A stretch of 64,000 bases of DNA from Candidatus Hydrogenedentota bacterium (GCA_034408725.1 JAWXCN010000182.1:41443-105442); one strand, 5' to 3'. Shown: positions 3,053-7,076, counted from the first letter of the stretch. Notes: a model not told the origin generated them from the sequence alone. Numbers and translations: made by a program.

Positions 3053-4336
3053 GTGACGTCCGGCTCATTCTATAAAGCCGTCTGGCGCTGGCATTTTTAT
3101 GCCGGCCTTTTCTCGATGCCGTTCTTGCTCTTACTTTCGGCAACGGGCGCAATTTATCTATTCGACACACAAATCGAGGAAATTCTATACAGGGAGTATT
3201 TTTTCGTTGCGCCCGCATCCACCCGCGCACTGAGCCTTTCTGCGATACGCGCGGCGTCGCTGGGCCTAGGGGAGGGAGAAAAGCCCATCACGTATTTCCC
3301 TCCCGCCGCGCCGGACCGATCGTCCGCGTTCACGATTCTGAACGAGAGAAACGAGATTCGAAACGTATACATAAATCCGTACACGGGTACCGTGCTTGGT
3401 TCGATTTCAGGCAACGAGCGGCTCATGTTTACGATCAAGCGGCTTCACAACCTCGAGATTGCCGGGGTGATCGGAAACAGAATGGTCGAGTGCATTGCGG
3501 GATGGGCGATGATTCTATTTATTTCCGGCGTCTACCTCTGGTGGCCAAAATCCATTCGCGATGCAGTGCGCGTTCGCGGCGGGCCCGGGCAACGAAGTTT
3601 CTGGCGCGACTTGCATCGTGTCGCCGGTATCGCGGCGGGCGGCGTGATTTGTTTTCAGGCCGCGACGGGGTTGCCGTGGTCGGGCGTCTGGGGGGATTTC
3701 CTGCGAAGGGGGATCGAGGCTGCGGGCCAGGGGATTCCTCCATTGGTGCGCGATGACCGGCCCGAGTCGATTCTACCGCGGAGTGAAGCTGCCTCCTCCG
3801 ACATTGGTTTGGACAGGATAGTCGCCTTTGCCGAAACACTTGGCATGCCGCCGGGCTATGGCGTATCCATTCCTTCGACTCCGCAAAGTGTATATACGGC
3901 AATGACTCTAACGCCGGACGATCCAGCGGATCAGCGGGTTATTCACTTCGACCGCTATTCTGGAGAAGTGATCGCCGATATCGGATTCCGGGAGTATGGC
4001 GGCGCGTCGAGGCTCGTTGAATTGGGAATGGCTGTCCACATGGGAAACTATTTTGGAACGGCGAACCGGCTTCTCATGCTTGCCGCATGCATCGGCGTTT
4101 GGGTGCTTGCGGCGACAGGGATCGTGATGTGGTGGAAACGGCGGCCGAAGAGCGGCGGTCTCGTCACGCCACCACAGCCTGAGCGGCGAGAAGCGCGTGC
4201 GGTGTTTATCGTCACAGTGATCATTTCGCTGTTGTTCCCGCTGACCGCTTTGTCGCTTGTGATGCTTGTCGTAGTGGACCGATTCGCGCTCGCGGGATGG
4301 GGCAGACTTCGAAATGCCCCTCCTCGCGCATCCTAG
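3053..4336 (+). CDS. PepSY-associated TM helix protein (iron-regulated membrane protein family)
   Basis: WRWHFYAGL, 'YINPYTG', 'FWRDLH', 'TGLPWS', 'VHMG', 'MWWKRRP' with several TM helices. Confidence 0.9.
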   Translation: MTSGSFYKAVWRWHFYAGLFSMPFLLLLSATGAIYLFDTQIEEILYREYFFVAPASTRALSLSAIRAASLGLGEGEKPITYFPPAAPDRSSAFTILNERNEIRNVYINPYTGTVLGSISGNERLMFTIKRLHNLEIAGVIGNRMVECIAGWAMILFISGVYLWWPKSIRDAVRVRGGPGQRSFWRDLHRVAGIAAGGVICFQAATGLPWSGVWGDFLRRGIEAAGQGIPPLVRDDRPESILPRSEAASSDIGLDRIVAFAETLGMPPGYGVSIPSTPQSVYTAMTLTPDDPADQRVIHFDRYSGEVIADIGFREYGGASRLVELGMAVHMGNYFGTANRLLMLAACIGVWVLAATGIVMWWKRRPKSGGLVTPPQPERREARAVFIVTVIISLLFPLTALSLVMLVVVDRFALAGWGRLRNAPPRAS

Positions 4337-4503
4337 CGGAAGACCAATAACCCGAACTCAAGGCTCTCACCCGATACGCCGCTACACACCGTCAGAATTC
4401 CTGCTGAACAGGTTGTATATCGGTTTGTATAATCTTTTTACGATTCCCTGACAACTCTGCGCCGAGCGAAGGATAGACTGGCAAAATAGGAGGTACAGGA
4501 AAA

Positions 4504-4890
4504 ATGAAAACCCTACTCAAGTTTGCCGCAGTGATCAGTTCCTCATTACTCGTCGCGGGATTTGTAATGTACCGTGCGAGCACACGGGCAGATGCAACGC
4601 CACCCGATAAGAGGACTGGGGTAACGTATTCCCTCGGTTCGACGCCAACACTCATGCCAGGGTCGAAGAGCGCAATGCCATTTCCGTCACAACCTGCAAA
4701 CGCGCAAGCCGGCGCGGAGCAATCGCGCACGCTATGGCACGGCACAAAGAGTGGCGCGGTTGCAAGACCTGCTGATGTGCCATTGAACAGTTTGGAAAAG
4801 GAAAACTCCGTTGAAGTGAATTCATCGCCGGGTCCCGTCCAACTCCTTCCCGGATCGAAGTCGATGGTGATTCGCGGGGAATCGCAATGA
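4504..4890 (+). CDS. Membrane-anchored/secreted low-complexity protein with three LxxG[ST]KS repeats
   Basis: AGGAGG/AGGA RBS upstream; hydrophobic N-terminal helix; repeats LMPGSKS, LWHGTKS, LLPGSKS; ATGA overlap with next gene. Confidence 0.8.
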   Translation: MKTLLKFAAVISSSLLVAGFVMYRASTRADATPPDKRTGVTYSLGSTPTLMPGSKSAMPFPSQPANAQAGAEQSRTLWHGTKSGAVARPADVPLNSLEKENSVEVNSSPGPVQLLPGSKSMVIRGESQ

Positions 4891-5714
4891 ACGGCGTGTC
4901 GGCACTGCTGCTGTCCAGCGCGGCAAGTTTTCTATTTCTCTTCCTCGTGTTCCGGCCCTTGGAAACGGCATTCCCCGCGAAGACGGGCCAGCGTTTTTTC
5001 CGTCCAGAATGGTGGACGGACCTCTGCTTCTTTCTGGGACAATACCTGTTGTGGAGCGGTGTCGTCATAGGCATGCTGACATATTTTGGCGGCGGGCTGC
5101 GGGCGATGCTTCCCATCGGGTTTCGCGATGCCGTTGCGGGGCAACCGTGGTGGCTTCAGGCAGTGGAAGTAGTGTTGTTGAGCGATCTGGTGGTGTATTG
5201 GGGCCATCGTATTCAACACCGCGTGCCGGTGCTGTGGCGTTTCCACTCGATTCATCACAGCGCGGAACATCTCGACTGGCTCGCCGCGCACCGGGAACAT
5301 CCGGTGGATACCGTGTATACCTTGGGGCTGATCAATTTGCCCGTGTTCTTCCTGGGATTTCCAATGGAGACGTTGGGAGGCCTGATTGCGTTTCGCGGCA
5401 TTTGGGCGATCTACATTCACTCGAATGTGCGATTGCCGATTGGGCCGTTGCGTATGCTCATTGGCGCGCCCGAATTGCATCACTGGCATCACGACCGGGA
5501 CCGGCATGCGGGCAACTATGCGAACATATCGCCGCTGATGGATGTGCTATTCGGAACATATCAGTGCCCAGATCGCGAACCCGAACGGTTTGGCATCAAC
5601 GAGCGCATTTCGCGAAGTTATTTCGGGCAGATGATCCATCCGTTCCGGGGAACAAGAGTTGAATTGGATACTGTGGAATTCGATCGAACGCGCCGTGAAC
5701 CTACTCCGGGTTAA
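4887..5714 (+). CDS. Sterol desaturase / fatty-acid hydroxylase family di-iron membrane enzyme
   Basis: His boxes HRIQH, HSIHH, (YI)HSN, HHWHH; 'NYA...DVLFGT'. Confidence 0.93.
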   Translation: MNGVSALLLSSAASFLFLFLVFRPLETAFPAKTGQRFFRPEWWTDLCFFLGQYLLWSGVVIGMLTYFGGGLRAMLPIGFRDAVAGQPWWLQAVEVVLLSDLVVYWGHRIQHRVPVLWRFHSIHHSAEHLDWLAAHREHPVDTVYTLGLINLPVFFLGFPMETLGGLIAFRGIWAIYIHSNVRLPIGPLRMLIGAPELHHWHHDRDRHAGNYANISPLMDVLFGTYQCPDREPERFGINERISRSYFGQMIHPFRGTRVELDTVEFDRTRREPTPG

Positions 5715-5768: not shown

Positions 5769-7076
5769 CTAAATCTCCACCGCATCGGCATGAGACGTTG
5801 CATGGAGCCGCAGCACCGCGCTGCGCAAGGTGCTTTGTGTCAGACCGAGAATGCGCAACGCTTCCGTGCAATCGGCTTCGAGGTTGCGCTCCATTTGGAC
5901 GATATGATGGGCCAGCGCGGTCACCGCGACGGTGTCATGCGATTTCGGCGCGCTTTCGGGCGTATTCATGAAGCGGATCGTGTTCAGCACCGGTTCGGGC
6001 AGACCCCAGGCCGCGGCAAGCTCGGACCCGGCGTCACTCTCCGTAATTCCATACAATTCCAATTCACGTTGACGGCGCAGGCCGGCGGGATGAATGTTGA
6101 AAACGTCGGGATAGTTTGCGAAATCGAGATGGAGCAGGGCGAGCGACCCGATGCTGTGCAACAAGGCCGCTTCGTAGATGCCTGGCGCCGCGACGTTCGC
6201 GTAATTCTTTGCGATGTTCCCCGCGGTTTCCGCTACTGCCACGGCAGTCTCCCGCCACGCGGTGTACGTGGGTTCAGCGAAGCGTAGCTGTGTATCGAAA
6301 GTGGTTAGAGACTGGACAGTTTCAATCACGGCGCTCAGTCCGAGAATGCGGATGGCGTCGTGCCGGTCTACGATCTGTCTCCTGCACGTCCACTCCCGCG
6401 CGTTTGCAGTCGCGAGCACATGGGCCAACGCGATAGGGTCGCGGGACAAGATGTTCGCGGCGCGTTCCGCGTTGATCCCGCCTACACCTCCGAGCATTGA
6501 GAATCGGCCTTTGGTGTGGCGGGAAATCGGAAGTGACTCCAAAGCACGAACTCGGGAAAGGGTCTGCTGCGCGTTTGTTAGGGCTGAATTCTTGGATGGG
6601 GCGGGACTACTCGATCGCCCGACGGTTTGAACCGAATTCAATATCTCATAATCCAAGGGATACATGGTATGCGCCGCTTCGCGAAATTCCTTCGCGCGGC
6701 ACAACACAGGTTTGACCCGGAGTCCTGTCAACGTCTCGGCAGCCTGGATACCCTCGATGTCAAACGGATAGACCATGACGACGGTGAGCAGGCGGCCAAG
6801 CCGATCGACCGGGAGCATTTCATGTTTCAGAACAAGGTCGCGTGGCAGCAAGTTGGCGACGTGATCGGAGACCTTGCAGTTGACGGGATTGAATGCAGGC
6901 ACGCCACGCCGCGCGAGAAAGCGGTAAAAGTCGTCCGGGGCCAGCGAACCCATCTCCACGAGAATGCCGACTGTTTTTCCGCCCCGGCTTTGCTGATATT
7001 CGAGGGCCTGAGCCAGTTGGAATTCACTGATAAGATCAGCTTCGACAAGCAAATCTCCGACACGCGTGCATGACAT
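5769..7076 (-). CDS. MshEN (T2SSE-N/GSPII-N) plus HDOD domain protein
   Basis: N-terminal RVGDLLVEADLISEFQLAQALEYQ; HDOD motifs 'ILSRDP..LA..LATAN', 'AIRILG', 'ALLHSIG', 'WGLPE'. Confidence 0.85.
   Translation of the reverse strand: MSCTRVGDLLVEADLISEFQLAQALEYQQSRGGKTVGILVEMGSLAPDDFYRFLARRGVPAFNPVNCKVSDHVANLLPRDLVLKHEMLPVDRLGRLLTVVMVYPFDIEGIQAAETLTGLRVKPVLCRAKEFREAAHTMYPLDYEILNSVQTVGRSSSPAPSKNSALTNAQQTLSRVRALESLPISRHTKGRFSMLGGVGGINAERAANILSRDPIALAHVLATANAREWTCRRQIVDRHDAIRILGLSAVIETVQSLTTFDTQLRFAEPTYTAWRETAVAVAETAGNIAKNYANVAAPGIYEAALLHSIGSLALLHLDFANYPDVFNIHPAGLRRQRELELYGITESDAGSELAAAWGLPEPVLNTIRFMNTPESAPKSHDTVAVTALAHHIVQMERNLEADCTEALRILGLTQSTLRSAVLRLHATSHADAVEI

Follow-up and report, generated by a model that had tools for sequence, protein, structure and literature searches.

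A conserved gene pair for a predicted membrane oxygenase and a membrane-anchored repeat protein, its probable partner

A 64,000-nucleotide stretch of DNA from a Candidatus Hydrogenedentota bacterium (GCA_034408725.1 JAWXCN010000182.1:41443-105442), here called the window and the frame of reference for all coordinates unless another locus is named, contains two overlapping genes whose conserved association is the subject of this report. The first (4504..4890, + strand) specifies a 128-residue protein with a hydrophobic N-terminus, a Pro/Ser/Ala-rich body and three copies of a short motif; the second (4887..5714, + strand) specifies a 275-residue membrane enzyme of the FA_hydroxylase superfamily. 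A first-pass annotation of this DNA had taken the pair for a system resembling those that make ribosomally synthesized and post-translationally modified peptides (RiPPs), with the small protein as precursor and the enzyme as its modifier. Our analysis leads elsewhere. The pair recurs in distant lineages, occasionally fused into one reading frame, and the small protein is more likely to be an accessory subunit of the enzyme than a peptide that the enzyme modifies. A two-subunit membrane oxygenase with a single-pass partner that bears periplasmic motifs is, taken as a whole mechanism, a moderately probable account of what these genes do.

Conservation of the gene pair

Twenty metagenome loci were retrieved by means of the anchor pattern of the small protein alone (taken from a seven-sequence alignment) and were then searched with the window's enzyme. 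An orthologue of the enzyme, 64-75% identical, lies directly downstream on the same strand in 15 of the 20; two of the loci, L044 and L047, are near-identical, and counting them once gives 14 of 19. Four contigs (L033, L034, L041 and L045) stop no more than 54 nt past the small open reading frame (ORF). The spacing of the two genes is variable: they overlap by 4 nt in the window, and in the 11 other loci with both ends called, again on the same strand, the gap is 9 to 119 nt. In L043 (5001-5884) two tandem anchor-plus-motif genes, for proteins of 148 and 141 residues, precede a single enzyme gene. (The same contig also encodes a protein with a sorting tail of the type IX secretion system (T9SS), and is Bacteroidota-like in that regard.) The further neighbours vary from locus to locus and include genes for a saccharopine dehydrogenase, a protein with a PKD domain and a T9SS tail, a TPR protein, RecQ, PagL and a prenyltransferase-like protein. 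No gene for a protease, an exporter or a recognition element is conserved beside the pair in the window, in the same-genus genome G003 or in L038, L039, L040, L043 and L044. Among neighbouring genes, only the pair is conserved. Its occurrence at 15 of 20 metagenome loci and in G003 places the pairing in distant lineages, and the failure of motif or pairing to recur elsewhere, which the first-pass annotation had named as the outcome that would tell against its proposal, did not come about.

The distribution among genomes of the phylum is narrow. The organism's own genome (G000) is 92% complete, and four other genomes of its genus (G001-G004) are available for comparison. Of 135 genomes of the phylum only two, G000 and G003, have the partner, and the same two alone hold a true orthologue of the enzyme (73% identity). 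Genome searches at the level of the order and phylum gave three further partner matches at E 0.002-0.01, and a scan of the genome contigs returned only the G003 locus again. G001, G002 and G004 (93-98% complete) have no partner and only paralogues of the enzyme, which are ~30% identical. The site in G001 is empty, because the two genes that flank it adjoin there: an HDOD gene (63% identical) abuts a homologue (68% identical) of the window ORF at 2481-2750. The window holds at this point ~3 kb that G001 lacks, comprising a PepSY_TM gene and the pair.

How far the partner accompanies the enzyme can also be asked of more remote relatives. Two plasmid-borne enzyme homologues, from Loktanella (40% identity) and Ralstonia (35%), were examined among 134 matching records, and neither has such a partner upstream. 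The existence of homologues on plasmids that do without the partner makes the latter appear specific to the highly conserved clade of the enzyme. The window's enzyme is 73% identical to its G003 counterpart, compared with up to 81% to metagenome proteins; a closer likeness outside the genus than within it, together with the presence of the pair in only two of 135 genomes, suggests that it has spread horizontally.

The two proteins are also found joined. Eleven longer relatives of the enzyme were retrieved at E<=1e-40, and two of them, P0272 (635 residues) and P0273 (654 residues, 51% identical to P0272), combine the anchor, a motif-bearing tail and the enzyme in a single ORF; the motifs of these fusion tails include ILMPGSKS, MFVGGSKS and FFGGSKS. 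P0286 is a one-residue variant of P0272, and the contigs concerned are of 112 and 300 kb. The four other members of the P0272 cluster are stand-alone 303-residue enzymes of another organism. P0271 (540 residues) was not counted as a fusion, its N-terminal extension being without an anchor, and the other long forms of the enzyme have unrelated C- or N-terminal extensions.

The small protein and the enzyme

What the first-pass annotation had to say about the sequence itself holds in every particular. The ORF of 128 codons is preceded at a distance of 10 nt by a Shine-Dalgarno-like AGGAGG (4488..4493, + strand). The N-terminal membrane anchor takes up residues 5-25 (4516..4578, +), and the three motifs follow in the body of the protein: LMPGSKS at residues 50-56 (4651..4671, +), LWHGTKS at residues 77-83 (4732..4752, +) and LLPGSKS at residues 114-120 (4843..4863, +). 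The codons differ between the copies, as had been noted, and the small gene's stop overlaps the enzyme's start in an ATGA (4887..4890, +). The first copy aligns with the motif of relatives and the PGSKS columns of the third are invariant in the alignment. The middle copy is a degenerate variant, with residues that are rare in the family logo (H at the third position in 4 of 363 family motifs, T for the first S in 16 of 363), and the same-genus orthologue in G003, a protein of 135 residues with the same anchor and the two motifs VMPGSKS and VFPGSKS, has no motif in its place. A metagenome protein of only 104 residues has three motifs. In six-frame ORFs of at least 50 residues from the organism's own genome (6,697,841 residues in all), P[GS][ST]KS occurs 53 times and the small protein is the sole ORF to have two or more copies; the repeated pattern exceeds chance.

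The small protein matches no Pfam or NCBIfam family, a word-based protein search with it gave two matches, and look-ups in the ESM Atlas scored no higher than 0.82 and supplied no informative name. A profile built from three sequences did better: searched against 1.84 billion representative proteins, it found 233 at E<=1e-3. (The SKS motif is missing from three long matches, P0004, P0015 and P0021, which were discounted as repeat noise; two others, P0014 and P0046, each appear to represent a tandem pair of partner genes taken as a single one.) Motifs were counted in 147 proteins of at most 450 residues, among the 150 listed of the 233 matches. Two copies are commonest (72 proteins), followed by three (45), four (13), one (11), five (3), none (2) and seven (1), so that 145 of the 147 have at least one copy and 134 have at least two. 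P0134, a 501-residue protein whose source is named as a Planctomycetota bacterium, has ~13 copies, the highest number seen, most of them preceded by R-T, R-V or R-A. The family logo, from 363 instances, reads [E/P][R/P][T/A/V]-[LIVM]-[LM]-[P/S/G]-G-S-K-S-x-x-[VI]-[FVIL]. In 353 cases selected for h-h-x-G with no requirement for K, S occupies the next position in 309, K the one after it in 332 and S the third in 290. Counts and logo bear out the contention that the motif is kept at the level of protein and in variable copy number.

The anchor is the other constant of these proteins. Its consensus in the family is LLKxAAVxSSxxLxxGFVxYRAGAF, with L5, A9, V10, S12, L16, F20, Y23 and R24 as the conserved positions, several of its alignment columns being invariant. 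By the alignment, this conservation goes far past what membrane insertion would require. Forty-six family members gave no credible match to a Pfam or NCBIfam family, the stray hits being single-member ones (PF15055 at E 0.004 and NF038356 at E 1.8e-4), and members from Roseibacillus sp. and Planctomycetota are named only 'hypothetical protein' at source. Judged by their sequences, the small proteins form an undescribed family that has no database entry. We define this anchor-plus-SKS-repeat family by the anchor consensus, at least one h-h-x-G-S-K-S and a gene directly upstream of a member of the enzyme clade; the window's protein has all three.

The enzyme is easier to place. It matches PF04116 over residues 95-224 with 105.4 bits (cut-off 31; E 3.8e-30), and its His boxes, which the first-pass annotation had rightly called intact, have the FA_hydroxylase spacing HX3-4H, HX2-3HH and HX2-3HH: HRIQH (H107 and H111; 5205..5219, +), HSIHH (H120, H123 and H124; 5244..5258, +) and HHWHH (H198, H199, H201 and H202; 5478..5492, +). 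All three boxes are invariant in an alignment of 41 sequences, as are H128, H135, H138 and H178. Homologues at E<=1e-20 number 4184, the best 120 of which are 70-81% identical to the window's enzyme (its own entry, at 100%, excluded). Their sources are Pirellulales, Planctomycetota, Haloferula, Luteolibacter, Chthoniobacteraceae, Burkholderiales and Eremiobacterota, to which the Bacteroidota-like contig can be added, and the only label that the clade bears is 'sterol desaturase family protein'; Luteolibacter arcticus is one species with an annotated copy. Most likely the enzyme hydroxylates or desaturates a membrane lipid. The sole NCBIfam match, covering residues 87-254 at 124 bits (E 7.1e-36), is to OlsE (NF052566); the cut-off for that equivalog is 475 bits, and by that standard the enzyme is not OlsE. 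An acyltransferase of the OlsB type (PF13444) was not found in the 92% complete G000, and OlsF-type synthases were not searched for; PF13444 is present in G001-G004 regardless of whether the pair is there.

An AlphaFold2 (AF2) model of the enzyme, with a predicted local distance difference test (pLDDT) score of 78, places helices at residues 3-28, 42-72 and 88-112 ahead of His box 1. Its best structural match, a weak one (Z 4.5, root-mean-square deviation 5.6 Å over 165 aligned residues), is to the hydroxylase domain of Scs7p and spans residues 32-262 of the model. Since that match begins at residue 32, the first helix (residues 3-28; 4893..4970, +) would be an extra transmembrane helix, and it is on this helix that the anchor of the small protein is modelled to pack, as described below. 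Sequence searches of the PDB matched no chain. Five members of the enzyme clade (P0274, P0275, P0277, P0280 and P0281) have C-terminal extensions or added domains, among them DUF2625 (PF10946), RCC1 repeats, VWA and HEAT repeats, a possible hint that the enzyme has further partners.

Predicted complex, topology and competing readings

A model of the complex was computed from alignments of 41 enzymes and 46 partners made for this analysis. Three runs gave ipSAE values of 0.76, 0.77 and 0.76, versus 0.00 for the best of three controls. Solved complexes attain the same score mark in 58 of 80 cases and mismatched pairs in 2 of 110, a calibration that is only rough because our own alignments were used. 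The runs share at least 71% of their contacts, and the pLDDT of the partner is 47-49. The confident interface connects partner residues 5-25 and 28 with enzyme residues 17-29 (namely 17, 20-22, 24-25 and 27-29) and 164-174; in the model the anchor thus packs on helices 1 and 5 of the enzyme, and it runs antiparallel to the first of them. From motif 1, G53 and K55 also touch the enzyme at an expected error of <8 Å, and enzyme residue 134 is listed as well. That the two proteins are physical partners we consider probable. The first-pass annotation had offered, as an alternative to modification, that the repeats dock on the enzyme or activate it; the idea of docking fits the predicted complex, but in the model it is mostly the anchor helix that docks, not the repeats.

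Three lines bear on the side of the membrane on which the repeats lie. The N-terminal tails of the enzymes from the window, G003 and the 10 metagenome loci with a printed enzyme start lack both K and R; in the window's enzyme the first loop, which follows helix 1, contains four K/R, and the His-box loops are basic. A tail free of K and R, followed by a basic first loop and basic His-box loops, implies that the N-terminus of the enzyme is outside and its catalytic centre inside. Enzymes of this superfamily generally have their catalytic centre on the cytoplasmic side. For the partner, a comparison of K+R on the two sides of the anchor in 144 members favours the N flank in 79 and the C flank in 35, with a tie in 30; acidic residues are more frequent in the C flank (1.22 vs 0.19), and in the complex model the N end of the anchor is beside the first (cytoplasmic) loop of the enzyme. 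The fusions require, moreover, that the tail share the side of the enzyme's N-terminus. From enzyme topology, positive-inside counts and fusions we infer that the SKS repeats are periplasmic, across the membrane from a cytoplasmic di-iron site, and so are probably not substrates of that site.

The mechanism that we propose is the following. The two genes would constitute one functional unit. Its catalytic subunit would be a five-helix di-iron enzyme of the FA_hydroxylase superfamily, with the N-terminus in the periplasm and the His-box centre facing the cytoplasm, and the anchor helix of the partner, N-terminus in and C-terminus out, would pack antiparallel on its transmembrane helices 1 and 5. 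The disordered Pro/Ser/Ala-rich tail would then display one to several [R/P][T/A/V]-h-h-[P/S/G]-G-S-K-S-x-x-h-h motifs in the periplasm, where the repeats may act as multivalent extracytoplasmic sites of binding or recognition for an envelope component, for a periplasmic protein or protease, or for the enzyme's own conserved periplasmic loop, at residues 161-165 or 69-87. Binding at the motifs could in this way tie the stability or activity of the enzyme to the state of the envelope. The computed basis for all this consists of the adjacency, the joint presence or absence of the genes in the genus, the fusions and the complex model; the topology, the exclusion of the repeats as substrates and their role as binding sites are what we infer.

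Several observations weigh against this proposal. At one of the 20 metagenome loci, L040 (757-1634), the place of the enzyme is taken by a 149-residue open-ended ORF with no Pfam family. Adjacency was counted from the partner side alone, among loci retrieved through the anchor. The complex score is to be read with its rough calibration in mind, the fold of the partner is uncertain, and the proteins that served as control partners were natural but unrelated, and need not have been membrane helices. If G53 or K55 were in contact with residue 134, which is beside the His cluster, that contact would favour the repeats as substrates; the output leaves the pairing of these residues unstated. The fusion P0272 has K and R just before enzyme helix 1. 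In its AF2 single-chain model the anchor has a pLDDT of 61-67 and the tail one of 25-38, and no motif is docked; the N-terminal part had only two sequences behind it, and for that reason the model is uninformative on the repeats. (Foldseek with this model found nothing at E<=0.001.)

The competing explanations differ in what they make of the same facts. The one that fares best, though it is unlikely, is that the N-terminus is a cleavable signal peptide, that the tail is released for its SKS motifs to act elsewhere in the envelope and that co-expression is the whole of the link with the enzyme. The n-h-c layout of the N-terminus, the A-G-A that many members have after the hydrophobic core (YRAGAF in the consensus) and a tail composition suited to an exported protein all speak for it. 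However, the A-x-A site is not kept in the window's own subclade, the anchor is far more conserved than signal peptides usually are and is modelled touching the enzyme, and the fusions hold anchor and enzyme in one chain.

The RiPP-like interpretation from which this analysis set out, in which the enzyme oxidizes the Lys or Ser of each core and the anchor is a leader that holds the substrate in place, is in our estimation improbable. It has the merit of accounting for conserved cores repeated in variable number in a disordered body, and for their tight coupling to an oxidative enzyme; G53 and K55 are, in addition, among the modelled contacts. According to the review PMC12971839, the target of OlsE, the nearest named family, is C4 of the ornithine head group, which it hydroxylates; the resemblance of this group to a lysine side chain is a lead and not evidence. 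The pattern of a RiPP precursor (a conserved anchor and 0-7 conserved cores) is present as a pattern only. Three lines of reasoning set out above would place the cores on the periplasmic side of the membrane and the di-iron centre on the cytoplasmic side, the fusion model docks no motif, and no conserved protease, exporter or recognition element travels with the pair, whose other neighbours vary by locus. We know of no member of the FA_hydroxylase superfamily that acts on a protein. A membrane-tethered multi-core peptide modified on Lys or Ser would require the topology to be wrong or the cores to re-enter the membrane interface, and we rate it as quite improbable.

It is also rather improbable that the tail is cytoplasmic, with motifs that recruit an electron donor or deliver substrate to the catalytic face. 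The superfamily does require an external electron donor and the conserved pair encodes none, and the positive-inside counts of the 35 members (of 144) mentioned above favour the opposite orientation of the anchor; against this stand the greater number of positive-inside counts, the uncharged N-tails of the enzymes, the fusions and the antiparallel docking, and a motif that lacks cofactor-binding character. That the genes lie side by side without functioning together, the repeat being no more than low-complexity noise, is made very unlikely by the conserved adjacency (15 of 20 loci), as well as by the joint presence or absence of the genes in the genus, the existence of fusions and the constancy of S-K-S after h-h-x-G, even if the small protein is disordered, language-model and structure look-ups came back empty and the two distant plasmid homologues (35-40% identity) are without an upstream partner.

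Surroundings, known relatives and significance

Directly upstream of the pair in the window is a gene for a PepSY_TM protein (3053-4336, + strand; PF03929, E 1.9e-66). It was considered as a part of the unit, but neither G003 nor the metagenome loci have it next to the pair, and it was rejected on that ground. On the other side a convergent gene (5769-7076, - strand) specifies a 435-residue protein with an MshEN-type N-terminus that binds cyclic di-GMP (NF053729, PF05157), joined to an HDOD domain (PF08668); it is syntenic in G003, and 62-69% identity is kept across G001-G003. Farther upstream, a 660-residue ORF (502-2484, +) has no Pfam or NCBIfam match at E<=0.01. A scan for promoters and terminators gave signals not above those of shuffled sequences, and the profile of G+C content shows no compositional island. 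The sequencing runs that contain the locus are DNA runs from microbial mats, with no RNA run among those listed.

That no characterized system has this architecture, as had been claimed, agrees with our searches of literature and databases: no description of the motif, of the partner or of such a pairing was found, nor of an accessory subunit of an FA_hydroxylase enzyme (judged from search results only). The known systems to which the pair can be compared each resemble it in part. OlsE (NF052566) belongs to the same di-iron superfamily and, according to PMC12971839, acts on the ornithine head group, which is lysine-like; the N-terminal 86 residues of the window's enzyme lie outside the match. 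To our knowledge, no partner protein is known for OlsE. The Scs7p/FA2H sphingolipid alpha-hydroxylase (PDB 4ZR0 and 4ZR1) provides the best, though weak, structural match to the enzyme model; in contrast to the window's enzyme, Scs7p is fused to a cytochrome b5 donor and is without the additional N-terminal helix at which the partner is modelled. A His-rich cap, reportedly located in the Scs7p structure on the cytoplasmic side of a helical membrane domain, would be common to the two enzymes.

RiPP systems of the MNIO/DUF692 type have soluble cytoplasmic enzymes and precursors with soluble leaders, usually with proteases and exporters encoded alongside. They share with the pair the feature of short repeated cores in a disordered precursor that is encoded beside an iron-dependent oxidase, but the window's enzyme is integral to the membrane, the 'leader' is a transmembrane helix, the cores are probably extracytoplasmic and accessory genes are not conserved. 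Comparable to what we propose are the small single-pass subunits of membrane lipid enzymes, such as those of serine palmitoyltransferase: a short single-helix protein that binds the membrane domain of a lipid enzyme (here as a prediction) and is inherited with it. We know of no such subunit that has a long disordered extracytoplasmic tail with repeated motifs, and of none for the FA_hydroxylase superfamily.

The small-protein family, absent as it is from Pfam and NCBIfam, could enter these databases as a new family. For the large and conserved clade of enzymes that it accompanies, a single-pass partner that is sometimes fused to the catalytic chain offers a handle: it sets the clade apart, leads one to expect a physical complex and suggests that control is exerted from outside the cytoplasmic membrane. 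Should the repeats be substrates after all, the enzyme would be the first member of the FA_hydroxylase superfamily to modify a protein or peptide, and its partner the representative of a new class of membrane-tethered modified peptides. If, instead, the repeats are a multivalent signal for envelope binding or degradation, the pair would constitute a new coupling of lipid remodelling to the state of the envelope.

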